A stretch of DNA of 64,000 nucleotides from Catajapyx aquilonaris (Eukaryota): positions 124,001 through 188,000 of the forward strand of contig KZ537962.1 in NCBI GenBank assembly GCA_000934665.2, in the 5' to 3' direction. Each line of letters begins with the position of its first letter. The stretch's first letter is position 1. The notes under the pieces are model-generated. The model worked only from the letters and a program-made list of their open reading frames with translations, did not search any database and had not been told where the DNA came from. The translations under genes were made by a program, and so were the position numbers. This document shows, piece by piece, positions 21,301-58,721 of this stretch.

Positions 21301-24300
21301 AAAATATGCACAAAATGACCTACACTCTTGCACAATTATAGAAGCCAAAAATATACTTCTCAACTGTTTACATTTTAACAACAACTACTGTAATGTTTCA
21401 CCTAGCATTAGAAACGTGACCAAACATAAGCAATTTCAGTGTAAAACTACCATGATTTGTCCAAAACTACCCTGGAACTATCTTGAATTTACCATCCCGC
21501 AAGTAGTCAAGAGTGTAGTGCCACACTATTGGTAGTGCACCTATATTACTGAGTCACCTCCCACATTCCCAACTCACCCAAAGCACATTCATTCCCAAAC
21601 TTGTCAGTGCCACCAGCTGAACCAATTTATCATTTGACATGCCTGACAAGGAGCTGTTAGTGTTGTCATGCATTCAGGTCATATGTACTACCTCCACATT
21701 AGTATAGGAAATGCTGTTGCAAATGTTACGGCAAGTGCACCCACACCTCTTTCTTTTGTGCTCCACAATGGTTAGTAGACAACACTTTATTATCCCACCA
21801 CCAATGCATTTGTTAAAAATCTCCACAAGCTCAACAGGTAATTCTTGCAAAGAAATAAATAAAACTGTACTTCTTGTTCAGCCAGGAAAGTAGAGCTTGA
21901 GTGTTATTCATGACGGGCGTGGCAAGGAATTCCCTGCAGAATCAGTTCTAATCTTGGTATACTGACGAGTGAGGTTAGCAGCATCAAAAAAGTTCGGATT
22001 TGCTCAGGTTGTGTCCTCCATAACAGGGAAGGTGGTGGTTTCCCCTATTTGAACAGTGCGCTTCCTTCCTGACATGCTTCATCACCTGCCCCGAAAGTAG
22101 AGTACCACTTCTACATAATTTATGAGCCACTTCAAATGAGAGCTAAATCCATTATGTTCTCCACATACGTAGCCTGCATTTGACATGCACAGACATGTGT
22201 TAAAAAGTTACTATCTTCGCAGGTCAGTTTATCACCTGCAGTGCATCAATTTTACCAACTGTTAAAATCTAAATATGAACTGTAATGTTACCAGACGTTT
22301 ATGCAAACAGAACACCACATGTACAGTACATCTGTTCCACAACATTTTTCTGAAGTGACTGTCATATGTAAAGTGCCAGCCTGAATGAGGAAAGTTATTT
22401 ATAATCAATTGACGTAATACTGAGCTGTTCACAAACTCTTCAAAAATTGCACAACAGTGCTAATTTAAAAACCTCAGTATGTTAGTCATATGTATTGTCA
22501 ACTTTCAATGTAAATGCAGGGATTTTGTACAAGCTAGCATTACAAGTGCACTGGTAACAGGCAGCAATAAAGAGGACCAACCGGTCATTCAGACTGCAAG
22601 TAGTATATTTGACACCATTCATTTGTCTTTAACAAAACAATATATTCTTGTCTTCTTCCTTCTCTCCTTCATAAAAACAAGATAATGAGTAGCAAGCAAA
22701 TATTCCCAGGTTTTCAGTGGATTTTAATTGAATCATCCTTATTTGTTCAAGAGATTGTGATTGGTTCAATCCTTGACCTTGGACGTTATGGTTCTGAGCC
22801 AGCAATTCCAATGATTCAGCTATGGATATCACAATATGGTTGGTTAACAACACTAGTTAGGAATTTTGATTACAGAGTGCCTTATCATCACCGAACCTAT
22901 CAATCATAATCAAGCAGCAAAGGAAGCTGAGAGAGGAGGCAAAGCCCAATTTGTGTGACATAGCGCCTACAAGAAGAGATAGAAAAGGACAGATGCAGAT
23001 GTGGTCTTTCTGAAAGGCAGCTATCCTGAAATCAAAGGGGGGAAACAACGTCCCAAGGTCATTCACACTGGGAATTGAATCTGTTCTCCTTAATGGCAGG
23101 CTGCGTGCACAACTAGCGGAAACTGCCTTCGTATTGAAATTATGGGACTGAATTGAGGTTTCCATTCAACATAACATTGAGAGCTAACAAAGGCCTTCCA
23201 AGTAACCACTCTGTACCTGCTTAATAATGAAATGTTTAGGGCCAAAAAACCGCTAACTAAAACAATACACTATACAGTTGGAAAAGGCAATGGCTTCATG
23301 CCTTTGCAACCAATAGATTCAGTTCAGCTCTATCAAACTGTTTGCCACTTCCCAATACACATTTGGCAAATTAGTCTGCATAAACAGACAATCACCAATT
23401 TATATTGCAGTAGCATTGGCATCCTTGCAAATCAGAATTTCAGCAGTTATCAAAGCGTTTAGGAAGGGCATTTCATCTCACTTTAAGGTCAATGGCGTAG
23501 GCTAAGATCAGGTCACTGATTTTCAGAAATTGTCAACACTGCACTGTTATAATTATTATCATGTACTGATGCAATGTTCCAGAATATTTTTTAGCCAACA
23601 TCACTATTTTGCAAGAATATGCACTTAGATCTAATTAATAAATGTTATCTCATGAGTGCTTTACATAACTTTACCTCATAAGACAGTAGAATAAAGGCCC
23701 ATTCACACAGGCCGTCGACGGTTTTGGTTTTGGTTTCGATTTTGGTTTTGGACCAATCAGAGCGGGCCCTCACTGTAACCATGACGCGTTGTTTACGTGA
23801 GGGCCCGTTCTGATTGGTCCGCGGAGTCGACGAGACCAAAAACCAAAACCGTCGACGGCCTGTGTGAATGGGCCTTAATACTGCATGTCATGTTGCATAG
23901 CAATATCTGAGAGACTTACTGGAAATCACAAGAAATATCTCACTTTTTCCTCAATTACTGCAAAGCCTGTTGCAAATAAATATGTCACAATACCGTGGCA
24001 TATGCACTGAGAACTGACAAAGTTGACATGTGAGCATTTTCCAGAAAATGAATTTTATTTATGCATGTCATTTCTGAACGAGATTGAGGTCCAACATGTT
24101 GACAAGTACTGATACATTTACTTGGCAAAAATTATACGAGGGCCGTACTAAAATGATTTACGATTTATTTTTTTGCCACAAATATAGTGCTCGTACAGGT
24201 TGGCAGATAGTCACATATTATAGATAGAATCCTCTTGGAGTCAAATACACACGAGTAATGGGTGTGAAACCTCTCTGTGCCCTCCAGGAACCATTATTTG

Positions 24301-26920
24301 GAGGTTCGGGACGCCCCATCCCGGACAACTCCTTACAGTCAACCATGTCCTCGAAATTGCATTATCAGCGAAGGAGTTTTTCTCATGGATCTGAACAGGT
24401 GAAAGTCACTGGTGGCCAAGCCGGGTGAGTGCAGCAGGTGTGGAAGCACCCAAACCAGATCCATGGAAAAAACCATTCGCCGACGCCATTTCGAGGACAC
24501 TGTTGACAGTTGGTTACATTGTTGATTGTGCACAGTTGTCCGGTTGTGGGTGTGTCGCACCTCCAAAAAGTGGTTCCTGGAGGGCCTGGAGAGGTTGACA
24601 CACATGTGGTGGTAGTGAATTCGGCTCCAGGAGGATTCTATCTATAATGTGTGACTATCTGCCGATGTGTACGGGCACTGTATTTGCGGCGAAAAAATTA
24701 ATTGTAAATCATTTTAGTGCGGCCCTCGTATTATGGTGTATCATTGGAGATTTCAAAATGCTATATTTGCAATCAATATTTATTAAAATAAATTATCAAA
24801 TTATGCACTCACAAATATCAAGCTCAAATATGGCAGCATATTAATTAAATTCGTTGCATCAGACGTGAATCAGATGCATTGAAAGTCAAAGTTGTTTAAA
24901 GTACTGGGCAAAAACAAATGTTTCCTTCACTTTTCATGACAAATGAGCGGTTGGAAATGTTGCGTTCATTCAGTCCCAACAATAAACTAACAGGTTGTCA
25001 CCACCTTAAAAGCCTGCACCAGAAACATTCAAAATTAAAATAAGACACCCTATCATGCACCTGTCTGAACAGCCTGACAAACAACCGAGAGTGAACAGCC
25101 CATCAACCAAGCGTGGCAATCACATCTTCAAATCCACTCAATCACCTGTAAACCAAACCAGGTGTATTTTGAATTCTCACCTGACTTAAGTCCCTCATGA
25201 TTCTAACAGCTCGCGACCAACCCGTTGCAAGGTCCAGTTCCTACTGTGCCACAGTGAAAGATTTCGCAAAAACATCACCTCCTACTCCCTCCCACCCACC
25301 CTCCCTACCCTCCAGGACCTCCGCAACAGTGACGTCAGTATCAACACCAAGCAGAATTTCTTCCTACGATTCCGTTATCTGCCTTTTTTTACCCCCAGGA
25401 ATCCGAGATGTCACCTTCTTGAACTAGAATTTGGAACCAGCTACGAGCGGTATCTCACGAACGTTGTTTGGTACACGCACTTGACTGATGCAAAAACAAT
25501 GTCCTTGATAACGATGATGAAACATATATGACGTGAGAAAAGACCTGCTTCAAAAGGATTTCCCACGCGCTGCACATTGCGCAAATTTCTCGCGAAATTT
25601 CTCCTCCCATCCTCCAAACGTGAATGGAAAATGGAATTTACTCTACTCGATTGTTGAATTGGATCTTTTCCAAGACGCCTTACAATCGATCCGGCAAAAC
25701 GATGCCAACCCGTTATAATTTGCTGAAAGGTCGCATATCCCGAAAACTGCCTAAATGTCATCCACGTGAACTCCCCCATTGTTTTTACGGGGCCATAGAT
25801 ATATCTATATATAAAATAAGTGCGCCCTGACCACAAGTCCAAGTTCCATGATTCTTATCAGAAAAAGATCGGGATCGAAGTGCGTGAGTCCCCCTAGATA
25901 ATAATTATCACAGGGTCGATGGCAAGCGTCCATTTCGACCAAAACAATACCTATGGGACACGCGCTCGCAATTACATCATATTACGCTGCCTCGTCATTA
26001 CTACAAGATCGATCACCCCCCCCCCCCCNNNNAAAAAAAAAAAAAAAAAAATCAGGACAAATTCAGCTAATTTATCATCAGAAAAATGTCAAGTTGACAC
26101 ACCATCAGCAATGGTCCGCATTGCCTACCCATGGTAACTATAATTTGCCCCGCAAACTTTGTCCTCGTGGTCATGGGTCACCCGTTGCCGTTGGTGGCTC
26201 GTGCTGCTTCCATAAACAACTTGCATTGACCCGCGACCAAGGGAAGACCCCAGCATGCTTGCAACACGTCACCAAATCAGCTTTGCCCGAATGACATGAG
26301 AACTGCATTAAATTCTTAAGAGGCGCCTCCCATTTCGTGACGGGTCCGGGTGAGAAATTCCCGTCGAAAACAACCCGGGGCTACTCTATCCGGTACTTGC
26401 GACCTGACACGTTACCTGGCCACACCATACAATTTCGGTTACGGTACCGCATAAGGTACAATTACTCCACCGGTACCCAGAATAAAAGGAAATAATAGGA
26501 AAATAAGGAAAATCCTCCGATGTTGCAACTCGATATCACTGGCTACGCCTCCGTCCTCGTAACACTACAGACTACTGATCCAGTTTCCTTTCCCTTTCGA
26601 CCAGGGCCAACCTCATTCCCTAAATCCCAACTGGTTAAGAAACACTCCTTACATAACCCACCCAATTTGCCAAATTAATTCTTCGAAACTAGAGCATGCA
26701 AAATGTATTTCGACGCTGGTCAATATTGATGGTTCTGCACTATGATTAGGCAACGCCGTGTGTCCCATGTACGATGTTTCATACTGTTAACGACCTTTTT
26801 AATATTACCTTAATATTTGCATAAATATGACAACCGAGGACATGCGGGTGCCCAAATAAATGTACTCACCGGTTGCGGGCGTTGAGCCAGAACCCCGTTG
26901 TGGGATCGCTTTAACGACAT
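18398..26920 (-). CDS. PCYT1: Choline-phosphate cytidylyltransferase (CCT), isoform starting MSLKRSHNG
   Basis: Exons 26870-26920, 20544-20652 (PAPFSDD), 20353-20469 ([19 protein letters not shown], HxGH motif), 19803-19954 ([15 protein letters not shown]), 19332-19553 (IDFVAHD...RTEGISTSD), 18899-19063, 18722-18825 (SPPSSP), 18398-18509 (stop TGA). All GT-AG and in phase. Confidence 0.95.
20759..21165. mobile_element. Degenerate long-TIR MITE (Kolobok-like termini) in PCYT1 intron
   Basis: Left GGATCATTCTACGTCAGTTTAGTAC...GGTATCTC mirrors right GAGATACC...GTACAAACTGATGTGGAATGACCT; imperfect arms of about 150 bp. Superfamily is tentative. Confidence 0.55.
23695..23875. mobile_element. PIF/Harbinger (Tourist-like) MITE, nearly fully palindromic
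   Basis: TAA TSD on both sides. TIR AGGCCCATTCACACAGGCCGTCGACGGTTTTGGTTTT matches perfectly at both ends; inner arms GGACCAATCAGAGCGGGCCCTCAC / GTGAGGGCCCGTTCTGATTGGTCC. Confidence 0.9.
24137..24728 (-). mobile_element. Internally deleted mariner element
   Basis: TA TSD, ~100-bp imperfect TIRs starting CGAGGGCCG. Internal minus-strand relic [22 protein letters not shown] resembles the mariner LPHPPYSPDLAPSDFHLF motif. Confidence 0.85.
25181..25198 (-). CDS. PCYT1: Candidate alternative first coding exon of PCYT1 (MRDLSQ)
   Basis: ATG AGG GAC TTA AGT CAG followed by donor GTGAGA; phase 0, compatible with exon 20544-20652; lies in a CpG-enriched region. Confidence 0.45.
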
Positions 26921-34572: not shown

Positions 34573-35604
34573 ACAGGTTGTCCCGGGGTAGTGCTTAAGG
34601 GTGTGTATCACCCCTGAGAGGGAATAGAGAGGAGGAGGAGGAAATCTCCTCTTTTCACACATGCAACTTTTTTCAGGTAGCCATTCATAGGAATACATTT
34701 TTATGTTGATTTATTAATATGATGATGATAATCATTGCTCTGAAAGCACAAAATGTGTCACAGTTCTGCCATCTCAAGGTACAACCCCCTGACTATATAA
34801 CCAGTACAGGTGAAGGCTGCGTGAATGCCCTGCACTAATCCCCCCTTATGGCAGAGTTGGTCCATGGCCTTAGGATTGGTCAGTTTCCCCAGTAACACTC
34901 ACATGGCACATTCAGAATAAGGATGCTAGCAAGGTGCCAGTGAAGACTGGGGGAATCACGGGCATATAACAGTATCACATCACTTGGAACAAAGATAAGA
35001 CTCTCCCTCAACGCTCAGCGACTTGATATGGTAATGGTAGATTAGGTTCAAAGCCTCGAGTATCGAGTACCTTGACTCTTGTGTACAGGACAGAGGATAG
35101 ACTAGTACTAAAAACTGAATATCAATAGTGTTCTATCGTCATATCTCTATGTTTATTATTTTATGGACATTTTCATAAACCATGATTCATTTTCATAGTG
35201 TGCCACAAACCGCCACAAATTGTCAACTACAAATACTTTAGAGGATGCACCCACTTTTCCATTTTGTCAGTATTGATTCAACTGTAGTCCTTGAACCCAA
35301 AAAGAAGTCCAAAATCGAACACCTTATTTTTTGTTCTTTGCCCCCTCTCATTAGAACATATTGTCAGAATTCCAGAAAAAAAGTAAATCATCACAGTCAT
35401 GCCTCTTCACTCCCATCTCAGAACAGAGCCGGAGAAAAGATATAGTCCCTCCTATGGAAAAAGACAAAAAAAAAATCAAGTTTGTGGAAACTTACAAGTC
35501 GAATCTTCGTAATGCGGAAAAATAAATATTTGCCCCCTACGAACCCCAGAAAGGAATGGGAAGAAGGGGAAGGACACACGATTATTCCACGTGCCAAGTC
35601 TCAA

Positions 35605-38600
35605 TCAGTGTGGGCTGTTAAGCACTTTCATCAGTGTTTGTTGCTGATCTGGTGAGAGTCTGTTGCAACATGCCTGGAACACTTCTGCATTCCCCTGAAA
35701 TTGAAAAGGCTTTTATTACACAACATGGAACACCTTCACATTGGGAAATACCATTCTTTGTTGCAGTTTCACACCATGCTTTCCCCCATGCTGTGGCACA
35801 TTCCATATTGTGCACGAGCCACCAATTTCAACTTTCTTGTGAATGGGGAAGTAGCCTTCATTTTGGAAACTACATAATAAATTCACCCATATTTTTTGGA
35901 TTTTTTTGGCGTATTCCGTTTTAAGATATCAGTTTCAGTTCCGGAGATATTGGCGTTTTTTCGTAGGCAAATGGTGACGTCACTGTTTGTCTCGAAAATG
36001 TTGACGTCACGCGAACTGAAATGAACGCAAAAATGATGTTATAGAACTCGCCCCGGCAGGGTCGTAAAATAATTCGTTGTACTGTGCTGGACGCGGCTGG
36101 ACATTTGAGCAGTCCGAGTGTTTACTTAGTTGCCAGGTAACGGGCGAGTTTTTACTCTAAGCCGCTCAAGCCGCTTTTTACGTGGCAGTGATGCCACCAG
36201 GTCGGAATTATCTGTCACCCGAATTCGGCACATGAAAGCCCCCTTTCTCCACCTCAATGGCCTACAGCCGCCTTGCGAATGCTTTCCGTCGTGTCCGCGG
36301 TTAATTTAAAGTCAAATTCCTCATATCTCGCAGTCAACCAGGCATTTCAGTGTACCCTATCGATTGGCACCACCCGGGCGCCCCGTTTTTCCCGCCAATT
36401 TTGAAGGCACTTTTAAATGTGCCGTAATTTATCCAGTATTGTCATTTTGATGCAACCGAGTGATGGAATGTATGTTTACAGGCATGGGCTAGCTAGTTAT
36501 GAACAAAAATCCCAAATCCCAGACCAAGGCTACTTCCCCATTGTTAATGAATCTGGTGTGGTTCGCATTAATTACCTGAATTTGTCTGACAATGTTGATC
36601 ATCCGTTTGGCAACCTCATGATCAGTGCCAATGGCTTCCCTTGCAAATGCTTCAGTGATGATGACAATGAGCTGAGGGAGATTGGCATTGTTTGGACCAA
36701 GTATGAGAGGATGGTTTGCTTCTATCAAGTCGCACAAGTAGTTGTATACATGGGGACACTCATCAACGTCCTCCCACACTGGCAGCCAGGTTAGCCTATT
36801 GACAAAAATGGATATTAGTTGTTACATTGATTAAATAAATTGTGTAGAATATATTTATCCCCTTATAGATTAGCTTATGCACCTATGCTTTAGGTATATA
36901 GTCTGGTGACCCGGGGTAGCTTGCCCCCTTGGGTAACTGGTTGTTTACTGCTATCCTTTTACATATGTTGCCATGGTGATTGCCCGAGGGCAAGCTTACC
37001 CGGGGTCACCAGACTAGGGGCCTAATTATTTTATAACGATTACATCCCTGACAACCAGGCTTTTCTGGGATGATCCTTTTCTTTCAAGAACTCCCATAGC
37101 CTTCAGTAACCAAAACAAACAAACTCAATAACAACATTATCTGGTTCCCAGGGTAAAATAAAAGCTCTGCTTGCTGGCGCAAACAACTCAAAAAAGCAAT
37201 AATAAAACCTCACCAGTGAGGCAAGATCTCATCAACGTTGATTGCGCTGTTGTTGTATTTGAGTATCTTGGTGACAGCAGCAATGGCATTTTCAGTGGGG
37301 TTAAGATTCTCCACAGATCTGGCCTCTGGATCATTGATGACCTCCACCAACCTCGGTATAGCTTGTGCACAGGCAGTTGCAAACCCACTGCCCCCACACT
37401 GGCCCAAAATCCCACATCCATATGCTGCTGCCTGCCTTACTTCTCCAACTTTGTCTCCCACATAGGTTAGGAGAGGCTGTAAGAAGTACTCCTGATATTT
37501 TATGCAAGCTGGGCCCCCAAACTCAATGGCATCATCAAATACACACAGGGCCCATTGACGGTCAGTCCATGTCTTGTCAGGGGCCTGAAAAAAGTCGATT
37601 GTGATATTATGAACAACAGTAATGATAGTAATTATGTGCATTCATTATGGGGAAGTAGCCTTGGTCTGGGATTTGGGATTTTTGTTCATAACTAGCTAGC
37701 CCATGCCTGTAAACATACATTCCATCACTTTGTTGCATCAAAATGACATTACTGGATAAATTACGGCACATTTAAAAGTGCCTTCAAAATTGGCAGGAAA
37801 AATGCGGCAGCCGGGTGGTGCCAATCGAAAGGGTACACTGAAATGCCTGGTTGACTGCGAGATATGAGGAATTTGACTTTGAATTAACCGCGGACACGAC
37901 GGAAAGCATTCGCAAGGAAGCTGTAGCCATAGAGGTGGAGAAAAGGGGCCTTCATGTGCCGAATTCGGGTGACAGATAATTCCTACCAGTTGGCACCACT
38001 GTCAGCACAGAAGCGACTTGAGCGGCCTGGAATAAATACGCGCCCCGGCCACTATCTTGCTCACGGAATGGGACGGTTGCTAACAACAGCAAAGCATTTT
38101 ACAACAATGACGGGGCGCGTTCTATAACACCATTTTTGCGTTCATTTCACTTCGCGTGACGTCAACATTTTCTAGGGAAACAGTGACGTCACCATTTCCC
38201 TACATAAAAACCCCAATTACTCCGGAACTGAAACAGATATCTTAAAACGGAATATGCCAAAAAAATCCAAAAAATATGGGCGAATTTATTATGTAGTTTC
38301 CAAAATGAAGGCTACTTCCCCATTGTGAATCATGTAAATGGTAAAACTCGTAATCTTAAATTTGGAGGAATAAAAACTGAATGTGCCAATGCACTAAATA
38401 ATTTTGTTTCTGTACGGTGCTATAATTATTTCTTAACGTGCCATTATACTACGCTTACCATGAGTTGGACAAAATGTGGAAGGAGGGAGTCAAAATATGG
38501 GAAAAAGGCGTCCTTGTAGGTGACAAAGAGGGCATGAATGACATCAGCTGCTTTACTGAGGAGATACACATCTTCATCGTCCTCATTGAGCAACTGCTCC

Positions 38601-41600
38601 TCCACAACATCGTCATAGTCCTCATCTTTGCGCTTCTCCTGGCGGGCAACTGCACGCTCAAAATGCTCCTTCAAAATTTTATCCTCTAGCTTCATCACCT
38701 CAGCCATGTTCTCCTCAGACAAGCAGCCAGCACCAAGGGTTTCTATGCACTGTAATAATACAATAAAAACGAACTTTTTACATTTACAACAAACAATTCA
38801 CAGTAGTCAATCAATGTCACCTTCATGTTCAAAACCCAAACATGATACAACTTGCTTACAAATAAAACTTTTATTGGCAAATTCTGATGACAAAAGTTGA
38901 GAAGTGCCACTGATGAGTGAGCAACTCATTTTCCAACTTCTCCCAGCAAATTTTTCCCTGCAGTTTCTGACCAAAGTGGCATCTGCAAGGTCTGATAGGG
39001 AAGTTAGCAACAATCAATACCATTTTATAAATCCTGAATCAACTATCTATCTTGAGTGGTACACACAGTGTCATCTCAATCACTGAACAGTAAAAATTAA
39101 ATTAAATGTTCCTGAAACCTATACACCACAATATGTAGATTTTGCATTTTATTACGACATATGCAATTTTTCTCTGCATTATCAGTTCCAAAGACTAGGT
39201 TCAGCTTAACTGCAGGTAGATTTCACATTTCACTTAAAAAATGATCAAACCATATTATGAATGATGACCCACAAAGCACAACTCAACTTTTGAAGCCCTG
39301 AATTAAACACACTTCCATAATAATTCTTGAGAATGGGAAATAGTGCTTACCCTGGCTAGAGCATACAGGTGGTCGGCCAAGACTTCCTTTTCTGGTTCTG
39401 TGTCGATGGCTTTGAGCAATTCTGGACAGCTGAACAGCCACATGGATTGAACGTACTCAGGACCTGCCATATTAAGCACAAAAAAACAGGTTGATGTGAT
39501 ATAATTATGATACAGCAACACTTGCAGGCATTAAATATAAAGTGTGTAGTAAAAGCAACCATCTCCACACAAGAAAGTTTATAAAATTTTTCTGAAATGG
39601 CATAGTTCCGCCATGTTTACTGGAGAGAGAACAGGTTTCTTCCTGCTAAATTTAAATCAACATAATATTTTAAAATAAGCAAGACCATCTGCATCTTTCA
39701 ACCTCTTCAAAAGTTACACATGCTCTTCAGCTTAAAAATTAAACACAAAACTGCATCAGTTGTAAAATCAAAGGAAATCAACATTAGTCTACACATATTT
39801 TGTTGCACCAAACATGAGTCTCTTTTAAGTCACATAAATATGTTGAAATATTGAGTCCAAACTCTGGCCATGAGATAATTTATTCTTCCTGAAGAGAATC
39901 ACCATGTAATAGGCATAAAGCAGCATTTACATGCAAACGATTTGATCAGCGATGTTGCAGCAATGCCATCCCGGAGAAAAAGTAACAATCGTGGTAACAA
40001 TGTATTTTCGCCCCACACAATTGGTCTCATCACTAGGCGATGACATCATTGCAACAAAGCCAATCAAATCACTTGCATGTAAATGCAGCTTAACATGCTA
40101 CTAAAAACGAAAATTAACTTCTGTCTGTGGTATAACAAAGCTTGTGGATGTAACAGACCAAATTACACTGAAAACTATTGCCACATGACTAGGTGAAACT
40201 AACCAACAATTTTCATCAAGTCTTTTAAAGAATCAGTAGCCTATATTCCTGGTAGGACCAAGTAAATATTAGTTTCTCTTTGACACTGATATGCCTACAT
40301 GGCACAAAAAACAAACTGGTGGAACCACATAAAATCATGACCAGTGGGTGAACACCCACACATACATTCTCTCTCTCAACTTAACCAAGTCATGGAAAAT
40401 GAAATTGCGGCAGTGTACCTTTTATCTTGGCACAATCCAGCAAGTAAGGCAAACTTTCAGATGCAGCAGTTCGAACCCCATCATGGAAGTAGAACTTGAG
40501 CATGGAAACCATAAGTTTGACAACTTGCTCTGCATAGCCAGCAAAACTCTCTTTCAGTTCACGAGCGTAGCAGACCAGCATCTGGCAGGCAGTGGCTTTG
40601 TCCTCCAAGCCAGCTGTCCTGATACCAAAATTCTGCTGCTCTCCCAATGACACAAACTGCCACTCCTCATCCCCATCTACAGCTTGCATATCCTCATTGT
40701 CCAGTACAGCAACTTCTGGTTTCAGTGATGCAACCTTCATCACTGGGTCCATAACCATTGGAAGGTATGGCTCAAAGCGCTTTCCTATTAACAAAGAACA
40801 TATGTCATTAAGTAACTCACTTAGTATTACTTTAAATTACTTCAAATATGCACATCCTGCATGCTAGTTTTTAAAAATTCACATTGTAATATAAAAGATT
40901 AAGTCACCTAATATCTTGCATAGTCTTGCCCAGGCAGAAATCATAAATGAAATTTGAGGATCATCTGCAGCAAGTCCATCAGTTTGGGACTTGAGTAACA
41001 TCTCCATCACTTCAATAGCATCATTCATAAACTGTAAACGAACACATGTTATGCAACATAATATATAAGTTGCAAGCCTCTGAGTGCACATGCATCATCT
41101 TGTGAAACAACCCACCTTCTCTGAACCAACTGCTAGACCAATAAGACTGACACATTCAATAGTCTTCCCTCTAAGCATCCTGAGCTCTGGTGTAACAGCA
41201 TTCAAAATAATGTATTTGAGGCATGGCATCAGGCGGTCATAGTAGCCAACAAACTTTTCTTCTGCAGTGTCTGCCACTGAGGCTATGGTGGTAACAACCT
41301 GCTCCAGAACTAGTTTGGTTCCCTTTTCCACCAGCTGATCAGTGCAGAAAAAAAGAAAATTAGGCAATTCTGTTAAATTCTGAGCTAATGGGTGGGCAAC
41401 TACCTCCAACCAGGCTTAATTACATTGGTGCTTGGGAAACAGTTCCTTTAGGAGGATCTGTACCCCTGTGATTACATAGGCACATTACAAAGATCAAATC
41501 ACACTTGGTGTTGACAGCACTCAACATGTTATCCTGTATAAGAATAAAAGTACCAATGCTATACCTCTTTGAACTTAGTAGTTAAAACAGCTTCCAGCTT

Positions 41601-44600
41601 GCCCATGATTGCATCCAGATATTGAGTAAATATATTCTTTGGGCAGTCTTCGCTGAAATTGACCAATGCAGCACCAGCATGTGCTTGCACTCGAGGATTT
41701 GCATTGTCATCCAGAACCATAAGGAGTCCAGGAACTACTTTGTCATGGAACTTCTTCTCAAACACTGGGGCAAAGTCAGTGGCCATTTGACCCAGGGCAT
41801 TGCAAGTGGCATAACGAACACGAGGATGCTGCGGGAAAAAATAAAACAATATAGTCAAAAAATATATCAAACTTGTAATCTACAATCAAAATCAGAATTG
41901 AAGATTTGTCAGTGTTTTACTCGGTTTTACCAGTCAACACGGACCTGGTACTTTTCCTTTCAAATTAGTTAATTCACAAGCACAACATAAACATGACTTG
42001 AATATTACTGCACTGTACTTCAAGCACACCAGTGTGGAGACACTTCTCTCTTTCCAGTGGATGGAAAGGTGTAAAGTAACTTACAGGGTCTTGAAGAAAG
42101 GGAAGAATTCCATTCATAATGTCAGGCAGCATGGCTTCCATCTGCTTGTGGCAGCCTTCACCTACTGCTGACACAGCCATCAGAGCTGCATGACTGTTTG
42201 TTATTTAATTAGTTTATTATTGGCACCATAATGAAAGAAATATCCTATCCAGGCTGTATAAATCTCACCGGTATTTCCAATCAGGGTTGCGCAACATTTG
42301 TGGTATGCTTTGAACGATGTCTGGCAGAACCGTCTTCCCTCCAAGCCCACATGCCAACCTGTCAAGGGATGACTCAGCCACCACTGCATTGCTGTAAACA
42401 TCGCAAGTATATAATTTTTCCCTTTGCTTGTACACCTTATATACATTTCTCTTCCCAAAAGGTATCAACTATGGCACATTTACAAGCCCATGACAACTGG
42501 TCCTAGAGTGCGAATAAGGCAGTTTTAGAGATTAGCATATGACATCAGGCATAGCATAAAATCTTCACACTGCGTCTGCTCCTCCCTCTGATTGAATCAT
42601 TCAATCAAAACCAGAGAGAAAGGAGAAGGGCCACATCCTTTTGCTTCTTTTCCTGCCAGGGCTTTTCTCGCAAGTGATGAATAACTGCACAAAATCTCTA
42701 TTTAAACAGTTTGTTGGAGCAGGGGGTTCCCCTGCCAAAGCAGGCTGATGATGAGATCGGTCACACTCGACATTTTTTTTAAATGCATTGTGAAACAGAA
42801 CTTGCATATTCTCACAGCCTGTTCACTCACCCATTTTCATTGTAACATTATTTTAGTACGTGACCAAAGCATTCCAAATAGTTTCAAAATTATGGAAATC
42901 TACTTCAGTTATTGCAGCATGCCGGCCACCCCGGGTTATGCTGGCATGCGCTTTATGAAAGGTAATACAGTAGATATTCCAGTTTCCTTTTTTGCCCCCT
43001 TTTGAACACCATACTAGTATTCTATGCTTGAAGCTCTTTATTGCCATGCTAAAATGACAAAATTAGCTTTCTATACCAGTTCTTATGAGCTTGTCAATGA
43101 ATCTTCAGCCTCAAACTTCCATGATGCATCATCATTTCAAGGAAGCAGTGGCACAAAACATTTCAAACAAACCTGTCATTGTCTTCTTCTGCCAATTCAT
43201 CACTAATGCTCCAATCATCAATGTCTTCCAAATCTGCCATCATCTGTAGTATTTGTGGTATTAAAGTTGGAATGTACTTCCCTCCAATTTTTCTAACCAT
43301 TGCTGGTGCCGTTTCTGATAGCGTCACAATAACTTCCAGAGCTAAGTGACGCCAGGAGTCTAAAACTTCAGGATTTGAAAATACCTGAAAGTTATATGTA
43401 AATCTATTTTAGAAAGTCTCTATTACACACTTGTTATGGCCTGCAGAAACAGTAATAATGTACAAAATATCAACATTTTGTGTACAAAAGGCTTACCTTC
43501 ATGCACAGTTGTAATATGTTATCCAGGTGTGGCCTCAAATATTTGGGGACAGTTTCAGCAAGGTCTATCATGCACTTCAGCAAGGCATCGTCCACCTGCT
43601 GCTCTATGCTCTCTGCAGTTACCTGTACCAATCAAAGTCACTCAGGATCATAATCGTCATCCAAAAGTTTGCCAACATTATATTTCTTAGACTACCCCTA
43701 ATCTTCAGCTGTCCCATGACTGACACACAACTTCTAGCCTCCCAGTACAGGTACACCACCCAACAACCCCACATCCCATCTTCTCTTGGAAAAATTGCCA
43801 ATTCCCAAGTAACCCCTACTTGTGGTTATTGGGGGTGCCCCACAATTAAGGCACAAAAATAATCAAATCATGTGTTCTCAGTCATGATGGAAAAAACTGC
43901 CTTGTATCTCAGCAAGCTTGCACATCCAGCAAAGGTGGAAGCATGTGCGAGTGCAACTTGATTCATTCATGCTACCCGCTTGCCTGGTGCTCCCTGTGGG
44001 GGTACCAGGCATTTTTTTCCAGCACTGCAATGGCAAGTACATTCCCAGGCTGGTTTTGAATGTTTCTTTACGGTATAAGTTATATTTTGCAAACATTTTG
44101 TCAACTTAATGCAGTAGTAAGGTACACTACTGAAAAAAATAACCTTGAATCGCCACAAGTAGTGCCAAGCAGACATGTGTTGTTGGAAGTGTGCAATGAA
44201 TCAACCTGAACTTTACCCCTGCTTCCACTCACTTTCACACTGGCACTGACTGTGGGGATGCAAGGCTATTTTTTCCAGAAGTGTACAAGACCAGGCACGA
44301 GGAAAAATATCAGCTGATGTGGTTGTCAACAAGCCAGTGTTGTTAAAAAATAAATTTGCATGCATCCTCAAATATTAAAAACTTGAGAAGGTCGACAAAC
44401 CTCAGAGGTAACGGATAGAGAACGTGAAACTTCAGATAGGTATTGCTAGACAGTAGCTTTTCATTGTTGAAATAATACTGTATCTGATATTAGGACACTG
44501 TCTGACACTTGAGAGGGGACAGAATTTTTTTAACATCCTATGAAATAACAAGACAATGCAAGCTAAACTCACCTGAATAACTCCAGGCAGTAAGTCTGAA

Positions 44601-47600
44601 AAGTGCTTCTGAATGGCTACTTCCTTGTCATGAAGAAGGATAAACGCACATGTTGCTTTCACTGCCTGAAACCTCACCTAGGGCCAAGGAAATAAAAATA
44701 GTCAGCATGTGTTGCTAGGGACTCCACACATTTCTAATTTCACCTCGTGATTTGACTGGTCCATGAGAGATTGCTGTAGCATTTGTTTGATGACATCCAA
44801 GTAATGGTTCTGTTGGTTTCCAAATACACCTGGCACTGAAGTGAATAACTGCAGAGCACTCTCCTTGAGGGCAGGAGAAGGTGAGTTGGCGCATTCAAAC
44901 AGGAACCGAAGAAACTCAGGCCACTGGTTATTGCCATCGTCGTCTATAAAATTGCGCGCAACCTCTGCTGCCAAGTCACAAAGCTTCTTGCGTAGGCTCG
45001 GAGATAGGCTTTCTTGTTGTACAGCAATCAGCACTTGGTCCTTCAGTTGATTCTGGGCTTCAATCGGCAACTGTTGGCAATTTAATAATTAAAATTTATC
45101 TGTAATACGGTAATGCAAATTAAGCATTTTAATATCATTATATGAAAGCCAAATTTACTGACAAATTATAATTTATCCACATTAAACTTTTCATATACCT
45201 AGACACAACATAGTTCCATTTTCTGTCATGTACACATAGAAAAAAAAATATTGGTTTATCAAGGTCACGAACCGTGGGGTAAAATTCCATAAAATCTGAG
45301 GACAGCAACCGCCGGAATAATACAGCAGAAATTTGTCTAAGATCTTCTCCCAAGCATCCATCACAAACGGTGGCCAGAAGCAAGGCCACCCTGGTGTTAA
45401 GAGGAATTGCATCATAAGCAGTCTGAAAGAAAATCATTTGCATGAGTATCTCACATGTGCAAGTTCAGTTTGAAAATGTGCTGAAATGAAATTATCAATG
45501 AGACAACACAACAGCATTTACAAAACTAGTTCATTATCTGACACGTTTGCAAGATGCAAATTAAAAATCCCCACAGTGGAGACATTAAGCAGCAGCATAC
45601 AGTCTCATCTCATTATCCATAGTGGTCCTCTGAGAAATATCTGATGAGGGTCACCCGCATCTTCAATTTTCATAACACTCGGTGAAAGAGAGAATTGAAA
45701 CAATGTCACGACAAAATAATAGAACAACCTACTTCTGAATTACAGCAGTGCATGCGCAAATTATATCTATATGTAGGGCTGTAGTAAATTACATGTCTTG
45801 TAAACTTCAAGATGCACGAAACTCCACTTACCAAGTTTTTACCTCTTCCGCTACATTAGTAGTAGTGTTATGCTCCACCAAACCTACTTATGCATGACCT
45901 ATTTCAATTTGTTTTTATATAAATTTTATTCTTAGAATTTATAACAAGTTTAGTAACCAAATAACTTGCACAGGTTGTGTACAATAGAGATTAAGAACAA
46001 TATGTCAGGTACATGTTCAATTCCCACACCCACATGTAGCTGCAGTGCAATCCTACTTCTACAATGGACATGTTACTTGTCATAGAAAAGAACACCTGTG
46101 ATAAGGTTAATTAACCAGACCTCTTCACCAGCACAATGCCAGGGAAGCTCTTATCTGTAACTATACTATTGCCCAGGTTATCTGCAGCTGCTATGCAACT
46201 TTCCTGTCAACAACTACTGACAGCACCTACAGCACGGTGTTGCTACATGGAATGTGCTATCAGTAGCATTGGTATTTATGTTATTAAACATTGAAACATA
46301 ACATGTTTATTGAAAAGTCACTCTAAGTTTGTCTTCTTTTCAGAAGATAATTAGTACTTTTTTTCACAGGTCACAAAAACGAATTTTTGTTCGCTGTAAC
46401 CTGGCATGGCAACATAATGTCATAAATTCCTTGTGACATTGTTACTATTCCCTCCCTGAGAGGACTTCACATAGATTTGATTCATTTGGCTATTTGGAAA
46501 TGCCAAACGATTTTGCTCCTGGGCAAAGAAGGAAGTGCAAGGCTATCCAGACACATCAGTACCAAAGCACAAGACTCAACAAAGTGAAGGTTAACAGCTG
46601 GGATTTGAACCCCTGAGCCCTGACCTTCCACCTTGCTCACCAATATTACCATGTTCCTGCAGAAGTGAGAAATATGTTGATTGCAAAATTTAGAATTGGA
46701 ATGAAGCTAAGCACATGACAAACCCATACCCTGGAGAGTAACAATAGTAGCAAAATTCCCAATGGAATTTTAGCAGCCTCTGCTTATTTTCCTAGAAATG
46801 ACATTCCTTACCAATCTAACTTATAGGAATGGAACAATATTTGTCACAAGGTCACAATCTGGCTAGCAACAAACTCAGCATAATGGGAACACTCCTGTAC
46901 TTCTACCCTTGTTTACCTAGAAAATATTATCTTATAGAAGTCAAGGTTGTCATGCAGAGACAACCACCATACATCATTTCACCTGAATTATGTGTCTGCT
47001 AACAACAAACTCAGCCCTGCCTGCTTTGGGCAATAAATCCACAAAAGCACAAGATTCTATCTAGAAATACCACAACTTAAAATTACTTTCCATATTATGC
47101 ATCACGAGGAGCACTGTGTACTTCTCTCTCCCAAAAGTTATTTTCTTATGTCTAAAGCAGATGCGGAATAATCTGCATGAATGAATTTTCTTGTAGCAAA
47201 CCAGCCACAGGTTGAGTAAAATTTTGAATGAACATTTGAAACGGGTTGTCATGCTAGCCTCGTCTGAAATACAAAAATTATTCAGGTAGTCATTACAGAG
47301 ACGGCTGCAAATCAAAAATATGCCCTTGTTACCAGCCCAGTAGCAAACCTTCAACCTTTGCTTCTTTACTAACATGCTAAATGCTGCCCATCCCACTACC
47401 TCATCCTAACTCTTGAAAAGTGCGACCAGTTAACACAACCATCTTACATAACCATCAAAATCCAGTCACATTATGCGCCCACCCCGCAACAAACAAACAG
47501 TCGTCCCCAAGGCACCCTCCAGGCCTCCACATCAGCCCATCCCACCAACCCTTGGACCAGGGGCCTGGAGAGCCCAATACATTGTAGTGCCATGTGGAGG

Positions 47601-47783
47601 TGACCCTTTCCGCCAGCCCTGGCCCCTTCCCTCCCTGGCACCCCGATGTCCTTCCAACGCGACGGACCACGTGCCCCAAGTGTTCCAACGTCCATGTCTC
47701 ACCTCAGCCTGCGACCTGATGTCGTTGTCCGCGTTGAGCAAGCTGCCAAGCAATTGCTGGAATTGCTGCTGATCCGTCGCCAT
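35605..47783 (-). CDS. IPO5: Importin-5 / karyopherin beta-3, 17 coding exons
   Basis: Exons 47703-47783, 45273-45422, 44744-45070, 44573-44677, 43497-43622, 43173-43384, 42269-42391, 42085-42193, 41565-41828, 41116-41334, 40908-41031, 40419-40784, 39351-39463, 38459-38749, 37214-37584, 36576-36795, 35605-35694. Motifs [78 protein letters not shown]. Candidate AATAAA (minus) at ~35152. Confidence 0.97.
35845..36539 (+). mobile_element. Non-autonomous DNA transposon, copy 1 (ISL2EU/Harbinger-like), last IPO5 intron
   Basis: 14-bp TIR GGGGAAGTAGCCTT...AAGGCTACTTCCCC with AT on both sides; no ORF. Superfamily inferred from the AT TSD. Confidence 0.85.
36899..37016. mobile_element. 118-bp hairpin MITE (TAG...CTA termini, Academ-like)
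   Basis: TAGTCTGGTGACCCGGGGTAGCTTGCCC pairs with GGGCAAGCTTACCCGGGGTCACCAGACTA; no clear TSD. Confidence 0.65.
37649..38321 (-). mobile_element. Non-autonomous DNA transposon, copy 2, inverted relative to 35845-36539
   Basis: Same TIR and AT TSD. The reverse complement aligns by eye to copy 1 across both ends, with a divergent middle of about 90 nt. Confidence 0.85.
39919..40090. mobile_element. PIF/Harbinger MITE
   Basis: TAA TSD; TIR AGCAGCATTTACATGCAA / TTGCATGTAAATGCAGCT (1 mismatch). Confidence 0.75.
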
Positions 47784-49304
47784 TTTTCGGCCGGGATAGT
47801 GAGCGAGGGAGTTGAAGGCAAGGTGGAGGAGAGGGAGGGGGAGAGGGTGAGAGGGGGGAGGGGATGGGGGAAGAAAGCACTGGCGGGATTTTGAGAGAGA
47901 GAGGGCGCCAATTGCGCGGCGGATTGCGCACCGAAAAGGATGTGACGCAATGTGACGTTACTTGGAGACGGGAAAAAGCACAGCGGTTCACACGTGGCAG
48001 AGGTAGCCAAGTTGACTAATAATGCAATCCTTGCACGGACATTAGTGCAGGTCTGACCATTTAACGATAATTAAAGGCTGGATTTTGCATTACAACTGGA
48101 AGGGAATTATTCGTGAAAATAATAAGGACCGTAAATAAAAAAGCCAGTAGCATCAATATAACAGTAACAGTTTTCGTAACTAGCAGTGAATGGGGAGCTA
48201 ATATGAGGGGGAAGAAAGCATGGGAGGACGTGATGTGATTCTGTGCCGCCAGAGGCGCAACTATCGGTTCCCGCCTAAACACAAATGATGATTCGGTCGT
48301 GGTCTACGAGTGTTGCACACTCTCGTCCGTCATTTACTGGCTCTACGGTCTAGTTGAACTGTGTCCCAGGTGGTGGAAATGTGGCAGTGTAATTTCAAAC
48401 TTAGGATCATGTGTGCTTGCGAAAAATAAATTGTTAGTGATAGCAAGGTGATAGTTACTTCAGAGTGAGAGACATTTTGCGCTACCCAATCTTGACTCAT
48501 AATAGACCTAATATATCTTATAGTCGCAGTGTAGGCATGCAATAGGACCTGATTTCTCACAAACGCACAGACAACTCAAGATTAACATGTTTACACGAGA
48601 TAATCTCGTATGAAGATTTGTGATTTTTCACCAAGGCATGCTATAATTTCTTATTTTGATTTTACACTTAAAATTACTGCCGCTTTTAAAAACCTGTCAA
48701 CAAAAGGCAATAAATGTGATGATAATGATTTCTAATCCCTGTTAATACCGGCATATAGGCCTACTGCATTCTGCAATATTTTTCCAGACAAGTTTCGCCC
48801 AATTGTATCCTGGCGATGTACAACCATCATCACACACTTCCCCAGATGTTGATGGTTGCATAGCGCCAGGATGAGTTTGCCAAAACGTCGTTGACGTACT
48901 GTACTGTACAGTACAGCCTAAAGCACATGCTGATTCATACAAACCTTTCGTGCCATTTCATCGCGTGCAAATCTGGAAATAAGTGAAGAAAATCCGTCTC
49001 TCTCATCCGAACTAACTGTACAGTACGTAAGTGCTGGTCCTGACAGGGGGTGCTGGGGACTGTGAAATTCAGAACCATCTCCGTCCATGTCACAATTAAC
49101 GCCGTAACTGCTGTCGTCAGTCTGCCTCCAAGCACAAGTATTGCAGTGGCAGCTTCATAAACTTCTTGAAATAACTTGATGGCATCGATTTGACGGAAGA
49201 TTATACTACCAGCAGGATGACACTTGCATGCCACACTACCAACGAGTCCATGGCATTCATATGCAGCCAAGTATGCAGCTTCTTTGAGGATCCCATAATT
49301 TCCA

Positions 49305-57336: not shown

Positions 57337-58721
57337 ATGGCGTCGACTTCTTCTTCTTCTTCGACGTCGTCTGTGTCCTTTTGCTGCTTGTGCGGGGAAG
57401 AAGCGCTCCCTTCGGCCCTTCCGGAGCACCTGGCGGACCAGTTCGTGCCCATTCTCAAGGCGGCCAAAATCAAGGTACGAGCTGGCATACCGGTGACGCT
57501 TTTTGTTGATAATGTGCGTGTGCAGATGTCATTTGCATTTTGATTGATTTGATTATTATCCCGGTTAGTGTTGCTACCATTTGACTTATTCTCTTCGTTT
57601 TACAGTTTGTGGCGAAACCTGTGTTGGCCTGCATTTCTTGCCACACTAAAACGAAAGAAACAGTTGAATTCTTTTCATCTATAAAGTCAACCCAGCAGAA
57701 GTGTCTGGAGTGTGGATTCGTCTTTAAGTCAGCCAGTGGCCGCCTTGAACACCGACATTCACATCCATCACCGAGCTTGGTCTGTGAGATCTGCGGCCGG
57801 ACCTTTCACTACCGCCGTAGTCTCAAAGCCCATCTAGCCTCCCACGACCCTGCCCGTCCTTTTACCTGCGAAGAATGTGGGCGCGCCTTTCGGGATCGCA
57901 CCAACCTTATGTCACACCTGCGTACTCATACAGAATTAAAGCCATTTCGTTGTTCGCAGTGTCCAGACTCTTTTGGGAAGCGCAGCAATCTCCAAAGACA
58001 TATTCAACGGAAGCATTCAGGCTCTTCAAACTACAAGTGCCATTGTGGAAAGTCGTTTGCAGTAGAATCTGACTTAACTGAACATGCCCAGACCCACAGC
58101 TTAGAGCGGACACATCATTGTCGCTTGTGTGATAAATCATTTAAGTTTGCTAATGGTTTGCGAAAACACATGGAATGGCATAAGGGGGAGGCCAAACATC
58201 AGTGTTCTGAGTGTGGGAGGAAATTCCGAGACAGTGGCAACATGCTCAAGCATGTTCGGTTACATGCCAAGAAGCGGGAATCAGTGAAACCGGCTCCAGT
58301 TGAGAGTGCACAATTGGCTAGTGTCATAGTACCCCCACAGTGCAGCCAGACACGGCGGGTTATAGTGAGCCCAACTCCATGGAGTGGCAGGAGTGCAACC
58401 CAACAGGTCATAGTGTACAACACTGCCCGTCCCACAGGGCAGCCCTCACAGGTAATAACTTATGCCAACAACTCAGACTCAGGGCGGACTCAGAATCCAA
58501 CCCCAAACATAGTGTTTGGATCAACTGATCAAGTGATGGGTTACCAGCCCTGCATTTCCAACCCCAAAATCTCAGTGCCTGTGATTCAAGGATACCAAAC
58601 AGAGCTTCTGGACTCTGAGGTGGAGAACTTGCTGGAAAACTTTGAAGAGACCAGAGAGATTATTGTCCCAAATGTGGGTCTGGAGCGGGACATGTATCCA
58701 TTTGACATCAGTTACTTGTGA
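57337..58721 (+). CDS. C2H2 zinc-finger protein (7 fingers) with ZAD-like N-terminus
   Basis: Exons 57337-57474 and 57606-58721 (phase 0). CCLC...CISC N-terminal cysteine pairs, seven C2H2 fingers with linkers such as HTELKPF, acidic C-terminus, AATAAA at ~58745. Confidence 0.9.

Follow-up and report, generated by a model that had tools for sequence, protein, structure and literature searches.

The importin-5 gene

The window, which is the whole 64-kb stretch of Catajapyx aquilonaris DNA that was analysed, carries on its reverse strand an importin-5 coding region (35605..47783) of 17 exons that encodes an intact protein of 1096 amino acids. By homology the gene is importin-5 (karyopherin beta-3), in agreement with the preliminary description: 249 proteins match at E <= 0.001, the best named of which are importin-5 or karyopherin beta 3, and the full-length protein is 73.6% identical to its best full-length match over 1094 columns. 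The translation of exon 15 reaches up to 78% identity to the best named homologues, and chains of human IPO5 are matched with E = 8e-40 and 8e-22. Pfam recognizes Importin_rep_5 in the protein at 32.9 bits, above the cut-off of 27, whereas HEAT, at 23.2 bits, stays just below the cut-off of 23.5.

The 3' part of the gene consists, in order of transcription from the reverse strand, of exon 14 (38459..38749; 291 nt, phase 0 at both ends), intron 14 (37585..38458; 874 nt), exon 15 (37214..37584; 371 nt, entered in phase 0 and left in phase 2), intron 15 (36796..37213; 418 nt), exon 16 (36576..36795; 220 nt, entered in phase 2 and left in phase 0), intron 16 (35695..36575; 881 nt) and the coding part of exon 17 (35605..35694; 29 codons and the stop), with a 3' untranslated region that extends beyond (below) 35300. 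Both the boundaries and the numbering of the two central exons as 15 and 16 of 17 had been given correctly, as is evident from an RNA contig spliced without mismatches and from CT..AC intron ends on the forward strand. Exon 15 aligns to residues 873-994 and exon 16 to residues 996-1068 of human IPO5 (6xte_A). Cargo of a composite transposon was considered as an origin of these two exons, and was rejected because they align to conserved IPO5 residues 873-1068. Intron 15, which would lie inside the precursor of the putative circle discussed below, also contains a strong hairpin of its own, at about 36900-37016.

Exons 15 and 16 together measure 371 + 220 = 591 nt, and the block they form begins and ends in phase 0. 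Its frame 0 is free of stops, whereas the remaining frames have 7 and 15. Closed into a putative circle, the block would comprise 197 codons with a single in-frame AUG at codon 189, within exon 16. A hypothetical skip from the donor of exon 14 to the acceptor of exon 17 would preserve the frame, joining ...VQLM to GNAEV.... What had been presented as an "endless open frame" is indeed a stop-free loop of 197 codons in phase 0 at both ends, but there is nothing special about it: 59 of the 120 contiguous internal exon blocks of the importin-5 gene are divisible by three, so that such a block is ordinary, with a default frequency of roughly 50% in this gene.

An inverted pair of elements in introns 14 and 16

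Two copies of one element flank exons 15 and 16 in opposite orientation. Copy A (37647..38323, reverse strand; 677 nt, from ATGGGG to CCCCAT) lies in intron 14 and copy B (35843..36541, forward strand; 699 nt) in intron 16, each delimited by inverted-repeat search, blastn, MAFFT alignment and a scan for the termini. In the direction of transcription, copy A begins with its outer end 135 nt after the exon-14 donor and finishes with its inner end 62 nt before the exon-15 acceptor, and copy B begins with its inner end 34 nt after the exon-16 donor and finishes with its outer end 148 nt before the exon-17 acceptor. These inner distances include an AT that extends the terminal repeat; measured from the ends of the GGGG...CCCC core they are 64 and 36 nt, the values first reported, and the two oppositely oriented copies of ~690 bp were confirmed where they had been placed.

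Within the window, the inverted-repeat search resolves the pair into three collinear blocks of 288 nt at 95% identity (36262-36549/37639-37926), 239 nt at 90% (35842-36080/38086-38324) and 120 nt at 84% (36142-36261/37926-38045), which blastn merges into one match of 711-714 columns with 86.6% identity, 28-32 gap positions and E = 0. In the MAFFT alignment 598 of the 701 element columns are identical; of the others, 26 contain gaps and 77 show substitutions, among which 34 are transitions. Divergence is mostly confined to the central ~100 columns, where the copies are non-homologous. The terminal core GGGGAAGTAGCC has exactly four exact matches in the window (35845, 36539, 37649 and 38321), which are the four ends of the elements, compared with 0.14 expected and with none of 100 shuffles that reached four. 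The inverted repeat is not due to chance. No third copy was found in the 64-kb window, the importin-5 gene included.

The copies appear to have diverged within a single family of non-autonomous DNA transposons that have terminal inverted repeats (TIR), for which a MITE-like type of ~680-700 bp is the candidate class. They resemble MITE-type transposons in being shorter than 800 bp, noncoding, multi-copy and intronic, and in having a terminal inverted repeat of 16-17 nt, (A)ATGGGGAAGTAGCCTT, at each of the four ends; they differ from them in that no target-site duplication is recognisable. Flanks inspected by eye gave no duplication of 3, 4, 8 or 9 nt common to both copies, and the AT found at all four ends is possibly part of the terminal repeat. 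A similarity of 9-10 nt between the flanks of copy A (ATGATTCAC and ATGAATGCAC) was rejected as a target-site duplication, having no counterpart at copy B. The longest open reading frame of the element is 87 amino acids, and none of three frames (66, 70 and 87 amino acids) matched a Pfam family. An Rfam scan of 35300-39000 found no family for the element; a mir-1329 match in the same interval is noise, since it scores 25 bits where the gathering score is 101.

RNA contigs from one public run, 90-99% alike to the element, cover it and diverge at its ends (35842 and 36542), and thereby reveal a multi-copy family that is also transcribed outside this locus. One such contig of 362 nt differs from copy A at only 12 of 349 positions, and so is nearer to copy A than copy B is. 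Exact-match scans of metagenome contigs with each terminus returned 0 loci. Copies A and B were probably inserted independently, a preference over a local hop followed by divergence for which the non-homologous central ~100 columns are the sole basis, and the 77 substitutions and 26 gap columns that separate them mark them as old. Selection for pairing was considered as a cause of the greater likeness of the inner halves (95%) than of the outer halves (90%), and was set aside because the difference is too weak and subfamily structure explains it equally well.

Predicted pairing of the pre-mRNA

Folding calculations support a strong thermodynamic preference of the pre-mRNA for a long duplex between the two introns, and the duplex that had been proposed is upheld in silico. 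For the 2764 nt from intron 14 through intron 16, the minimum-free-energy fold contains 612 predicted pairs between copies A and B, compared with 6 within A and 11 within B, and the predicted energy of the two arms folded together is -1087 kcal/mol, compared with -208 and -205 kcal/mol for the single arms. Pairing across the exons is thus predicted over pairing within an intron, and neither the gene nor the window has a competing copy. In common with circRNA loci flanked by inverted repeats, the arms lie in both flanking introns and near canonical AG/GT splice sites.

Evidence from RNA

The RNA data were assembled Logan contigs of the one available public run that contains this locus (32 million letters, library type not recorded), compared over 35300-47900. 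One contig of 3783 nt, with 0 mismatches and a depth of 40.6, joins exons 14, 15, 16 and 17 and the rest of the gene. Fifteen canonical joints are among those listed, and the sixteenth is accounted for by the remaining 257 nt of the contig, which are exon 2 and exon 1. Importin-5 is expressed here and its splicing is normal; a linear mRNA of canonical form, exons 15 and 16 included, was the only product observed.

The preliminary description had predicted that the pre-mRNA could give rise to a back-spliced circle and/or to an mRNA lacking exons 15 and 16. Among the joints listed for the contigs of this run (15 of 16), from which rare products may drop out, there was neither a back-splice joint from 36576 to 37584 nor a skip joint from 38459 to 35694, and none of any kind that runs backwards along the gene; the run is small and its reads are assembled, so that minor isoforms could escape detection. 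Bins that fall entirely within repeat-free intron sequence (43720-44561 and 45825-47508) had zero cover, which makes the run seem low in pre-mRNA and a poor place to seek circles. Changed places over the arms, 36 in all, include 5 of A>G and 3 of T>C, which is no excess. Most of them are in contigs that also have other types of substitution and are therefore attributed to further family members, so that they amount to no real test of editing. The name circIPO5 was not found in the literature searched, which consisted of full text and had subscription journals and circRNA database names outside its scope.

Interpretation

The best explanation, to which we assign a probability of about 0.55, is that two neutral MITE-like insertions flank exons that are spliced normally for the most part, with at most a minor 591-nt circRNA and/or a skipped mRNA as a by-product. 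Two members of the family would have inserted in introns 14 and 16 in opposite orientation, and normal splicing that retains exons 15 and 16 would be the main output. If intron 14 is still present once intron 16 has been made, the arms may zip into a duplex of ~600 bp, which would appose the exon-16 donor to the exon-15 acceptor and likewise the exon-14 donor to the exon-17 acceptor. Splice sites apposed in this way would be expected to yield a low level of exon 15-16 circRNA and/or of mRNA without these exons, as with mammalian Alu pairs and the DNAREP1_DM pair at laccase2. Pairing in vivo, the circle, the skipped product, editing and siRNA are all processes that we infer for this locus, which offers a sound prediction based on a mechanism known from textbooks rather than a discovery, and any consequences at the protein level are speculative.

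The yield of such by-products could lie on either side of "minor". According to Kramer et al. (2015; PMC4617980, in part), the laccase2 circle of Drosophila needs an inverted DNAREP1_DM pair near its exon that is 75% identical over 106 nt and 69% over 272 nt, and it is among the most abundant circles of the fly; a much weaker pair than that of importin-5 thus gives an abundant circle, and "minor" may understate the yield here. On the other hand, the introns are short and the splice sites good, so that intron 14 may leave before copy B is made and the yield could be nil. Liang and Wilusz (2014; PMC4201285, in part) found that repeats of 30-40 nt are enough for circularization and that a more stable hairpin can inhibit it, by which route too the yield could be nil.

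It is somewhat unlikely that the pair has no effect on splicing at all, either because intron 14 is spliced out during transcription, before copy B appears, or because helicases or double-stranded RNA-binding proteins part the arms; the copies would then be neutral relics, and any double-stranded RNA would feed editing or siRNA without a change in the mRNA. The canonical mRNA alone was seen, the introns are short and their splice sites good, the gene is intact, the copies are old, and the polymerase has to cover about 1.1-1.8 kb from arm A to the end of arm B. However, the minigene tests quoted in sections of PMC4617980 and PMC4201285 all gave circles, in fly and in human cells, when complementary repeats at least 40-100 nt long flanked the exons closely, and the 8 changes of A>G or T>C among 36, in contigs that are largely other family copies, lend nothing to the part of this reading that concerns editing.

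Efficient back-splicing, in which the 591-nt circle would be a major and stable product comparable to that of laccase2 and possibly made at the cost of linear importin-5 mRNA, is unlikely. It would agree with an overwhelming predicted pairing (in silico), with arms within 34-64 nt of the splice sites, with the lack of a competing repeat in the gene, and with repeats that are longer and better matched than those of laccase2 (288 nt at 95% as against 75% over 106 nt, the latter from an excerpt of PMC4617980). Against it, the back-splice joint is missing among the contig joints listed, and the linear contig is unbroken over four exons at its depth of 40.6; both are weak hints, as contigs drop rare variants. 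The inhibition of circularization by very stable hairpins (PMC4201285, in part) also speaks against it, as do the short flanking introns, which are untypical of circRNA loci of the fly, where flanking introns are usually long (Westholm 2014, as cited in a passage of PMC4617980).

The preliminary description had further suggested an in-frame skipping switch, by which the duplex would loop out exons 15 and 16 in a regulated manner and importin-5 would lose ~197 C-terminal residues of its HEAT repeats (human 873-1068). The geometry would allow skipping, since the exon-14 donor and the exon-17 acceptor would come to face each other over the outer end of the stem, with about 135 + 148 nt between them, the frame is kept, and a link between the skipping of exons and the making of circles has been described (Kelly 2015 and others, cited by Kramer et al. 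2015, PMC4617980). The skip joint, however, is not among the contig joints listed; keeping of the frame is the default of this gene; a solenoid that lacks about four HEAT repeats and retains the last 29 residues would likely be unstable; and production of the laccase2 circle is reported, in the same part of PMC4617980, (Kramer et al. 2015) to be unlinked to skipping. Nothing points to regulation, and with "switch" the locus had been over-read. A regulated switch is most improbable.

Still harder to credit is an abundant circle translated round and round into a concatemer of HEAT repeats, or a duplex whose formation is tuned by ADAR, by helicases or by the rate of transcription, with the locus toggling between full-length and C-terminally deleted importin-5; if either were true, transposons would have given a regulatory device to a nuclear import receptor that is essential. 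There is next to no likelihood that one copy is an assembly artefact in the form of a false inverted duplication, a caveat of the preliminary description in favour of which nothing was found: fold-back artefacts of assembly give near-identical arms, and these copies differ by 77 substitutions, 26 gap columns and a non-homologous centre, enclose unique coding exons in the order and orientation of the mRNA contig without mismatches, and are far from the nearest N, at 26032.

If the circle exists, it would be a clean natural case, outside model organisms, of one isolated and strongly complementary pair of DNA transposons that makes a circRNA. With short introns and no competing repeat, it would be useful for the study of the trade-off among repeat strength, intron length and co-transcriptional splicing, and the birth of the circRNA could be dated from which relatives carry each of the copies.

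Comparison with known systems

The importin-5 locus resembles Drosophila laccase2 and PlexA in that an inverted pair of DNA transposons lies very near the splice sites of an arthropod gene, and it differs from laccase2 in several aspects (Kramer et al. 2015; PMC4617980, in part). The predicted pairing is far stronger here (~600 pairs, with 288 nt at 95%), two exons and an intron are enclosed instead of one exon, and the flanking introns are 874 and 881 nt long instead of more than 9 kb. Whereas the laccase2 circle has been observed, that of importin-5 is a prediction.

The likeness to circRNAs with stop-free ("infinite") reading frames and rolling-circle translation extends to a length of 3n, the lack of stops and one in-frame AUG, but it is known here from coding-exon sequence alone and is purely formal, as it follows from coding exons that sum to 3n.

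Like the mammalian circRNA loci that are formed by Alu or other SINE pairs (ZKSCAN1, HIPK3 and EPHB4; Liang and Wilusz 2014, PMC4201285, in part, and Jeck 2013 as cited there), importin-5 has complementary repeats in both flanking introns, which at those loci draw the back-splice sites together, and young lineage-specific transposons are a source of repeats in common; recent transposon insertions give rise to many circRNAs as by-products (Gruhl 2021; PMC8516420, in part). In contrast to those loci, the repeats of importin-5 would belong to a TIR DNA transposon and not a SINE, they form the sole pair in their gene and so face no competition among alternative pairs, and their arms are about twice as long as an Alu.

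The importin-5 gene

The gene that encloses the two element copies lies on the minus strand and encodes importin-5 (karyopherin beta-3). At a threshold of E <= 0.001, a protein search with the translation of exon 15 returned 249 proteins; those top matches that have a name are importin-5 or karyopherin beta 3 of insects or other arthropods (up to 78% identity). The exon-15 translation also aligned with residues 873-994 of human IPO5 chain 6xte_A (E = 8e-40); exon 16 aligned with residues 996-1068 (E = 8e-22). Mapped by tblastn, the whole gene runs from 47783 to 35614 on the minus strand, and its 17 coding exons specify an intact protein of 1096 amino acids, with top full-length identities of 73.6% (termite), 73.4% (cricket) and 73.3% (damselfly). 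These matches point to an arthropod source, most likely a hexapod, with no protein of the species itself among them. The exon model combines the joints seen in a spliced RNA contig with a separate search for the first intron; it has CT..AC intron ends on the plus strand throughout and bears out the numbering of the enclosed exons as 15 and 16 of 17. Exon 14 ends at 38459, exon 15 (371 nt) occupies 37584..37214, exon 16 (220 nt) occupies 36795..36576, and exon 17 starts at 35694. Introns 14 and 16 measure 874 and 881 nt, so that transposon sequence makes up about four-fifths of each; the remaining introns are 66-955 nt long, except intron 1 (~2.3 kb). Directly upstream of the start codon at 47783, 82 letters (47819-47900) were masked as repeats in read mapping.

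The inverted element pair

Copy A (37647-38323, 677 nt) lies in intron 14 and copy B (35843-36541, 699 nt) in intron 16, the AT extension of the terminal repeat being counted in both. Their opposite orientation and placement, as given in the preliminary description, are confirmed by three collinear inverted blocks from a repeat search of the window (36262-36549/37639-37926, 288 nt, 95% complementary; 35842-36080/38086-38324, 239 nt, 90%; 36142-36261/37926-38045, 120 nt, 84%) and by a single blastn match of 711-714 columns with 86.6% identity and 28-32 gap positions. No third copy was found by blastn across the 64-kb window. Of the 701 element columns in a MAFFT alignment, 598 are identical, 77 hold substitutions (34 transitions) and 26 hold gaps; nearly all of the divergence falls in the central ~100 columns, the other ~600 being ~92% identical. 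Both copies are bounded by a terminal inverted repeat of 16-17 nt, (A)ATGGGGAAGTAGCCTT. The terminal core GGGGAAGTAGCC has exactly four matches in the window (35845, 36539, 37649 and 38321) versus 0.14 expected, a count reached in none of 100 shuffles, and these positions agree with the element ends described earlier. The inner end of copy A is 62 nt from the exon-15 acceptor (64 from the GGGG core) and that of copy B 34 nt from the exon-16 donor (36 from the core); the outer ends are 135 nt from the exon-14 donor and 148 nt from the exon-17 acceptor, respectively.

The element is small and has no evident coding capacity: its longest open reading frame is 87 amino acids; none of three submitted to Pfam matched any family, Rfam gave no credible match, and no target-site duplication was recognised at either copy. 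More copies of the element exist elsewhere, as the RNA run contains contigs with 90-99% similarity that cover it and diverge at its two ends, 35842 and 36542; one of 362 nt, which differs from copy A at 12 of 349 positions, is nearer to copy A than copy B is. We read the element, from its sequence features, as a MITE-like family of non-autonomous DNA transposons with members younger than copies A and B. Because the centres of A and B are non-homologous, the copies would descend from different family members; two independent insertions are thus more probable than a local hop in recent time. The outer third of either copy contains a pair of TGACGTCA palindromes with a spacing of ~27 nt, and CpG is not depleted (30 observed versus 33.7 expected, and 40 versus 36.4). 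RNA contigs of other family members have depths of 52-131, versus 40.6 for the importin-5 mRNA contig, these depths being summed over loci and not a measure of expression.

Predicted pairing and RNA evidence

In the minimum free energy fold of the 2764 nt that comprise introns 14 to 16 with the exons between them, 612 pairs join arms A and B, versus 6 within A and 11 within B; the two arms cofold at -1087 kcal/mol, versus -208 and -205 for single arms. No competing repeat for either arm was found in the gene or the 64-kb window. The long duplex proposed for the pre-mRNA is thus thermodynamically sound as a prediction; its formation in the cell depends on kinetics and on proteins that bind double-stranded RNA.

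The RNA evidence is a single public run containing the locus, as assembled contigs (32 million letters) compared over 35300-47900. One contig of 3783 nt (depth 40.6, no mismatches) is the fully spliced canonical importin-5 mRNA, which shows that the gene is expressed, that exons 15 and 16 are in the dominant mRNA and that the exon model is correct. The 15 splice joints listed are all forward canonical introns, including 35694|36576, 36795|37214 and 37584|38459; a further joint is accounted for by the remaining 257 nt, comprising exon 2 (150 nt) and exon 1 with its leader. Among the joints listed for this run there was no back-splice of 36576 to 37584, no skip from 38459 to 35694 and no change of strand; contigs drop rare variants, 19 loose ends and 56 pieces fell outside the listing, and the library type is not on record, so the run is no test of the predicted circle or skip. 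A>G or T>C changes made up 8 of 36 changed letters over the arms, no excess, and the other substitution types present mark these contigs as other copies of the family.

Possible consequences for splicing

The repeats, their geometry, the gene and the frame given in the preliminary description all stand, as does, in silico, the pairing that it proposed; its circular and exon-skipped products are predictions. The importin-5 locus has every structural feature of the inverted-repeat circRNA class, whose defining functional criterion is an observed back-splice, and would join that class if one were confirmed. We favour, with a probability of roughly 0.55, a neutral transposon pair whose circle or skip by-products, if any, are minor. 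The closest known case, going by excerpts from Kramer et al. (2015, PMC4617980), is Drosophila laccase2, in which an inverted DNAREP1_DM pair very near exon 2 (75% identical over 106 nt, 69% over 272 nt) must base-pair to give a circle that ranks among the most abundant in the fly, and miniature introns of <150 nt are enough. According to Gruhl et al. (2021, PMC8516420), many circRNAs originate as by-products when young transposons insert in a species-specific manner. No paper under the name "circIPO5" was found in the library searched.

A pair with no effect on splicing is possible, if clearly less probable. Arm A is transcribed 1.1-1.8 kb ahead of completed arm B, and intron 14 might be removed in that interval. 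Excerpts from Liang and Wilusz (2014, PMC4201285) state that circularization is governed by "more than simple thermodynamics", that a stronger hairpin can inhibit it and that ADAR may oppose it; they also report that repeats of 30-40 nt suffice in human cells.

That the exon 15-16 circle is a major product seems doubtful.

A regulated in-frame switch is very improbable. The exon 15-16 block does enter and leave in phase 0, with no stop in frame versus 7 and 15 in the other two frames, and a single in-frame AUG at codon 189, as the endless frame described earlier would require. That frame has no special significance: 59 of 120 contiguous internal-exon blocks of this gene are divisible by three, because most of its exons are phase 0/0, and any such block is stop-free in the host frame; neither the endless frame nor in-frame skipping is therefore informative on function. 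For laccase2, the excerpted text reports no link between circle output and exon skipping (PMC4617980). An assembly artefact in copy A or B can practically be dismissed, the only five N letters of the window (15172 and 26029-26032) being distant from the locus.

Other repeats and a candidate gene in the window

Intron 15 contains a strong hairpin (36900-37016, minus strand) with stems of ~28 nt and a loop of ~60 nt, whose 141-nt fold has -66.2 kcal/mol (z = -7.1; none of 200 shuffles as stable). It is matched, apart from a single difference, by an RNA contig at depth 9, which makes a second, smaller MITE-like family probable; the hairpin would fall within any intron-retaining circle. In intron 13, a 76-nt inverted pair (39918-40091, 71% complementary, arms 22 nt apart) is likely the edge of a further repeated element, and two distinct RNA contigs end beside it, at 39914 and 39915. 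Two fold-back elements of ~600 bp, at 24131-24734 (arms 120 nt, 87%) and 59918-60529 (118 nt, 88%), have no blastn relation to each other or to the importin-5 pair. On the plus strand, an open frame of 378 codons (57585-58721) with many C-x2-C...H-x3-H motifs looks, by eye, like a C2H2 zinc-finger protein gene.
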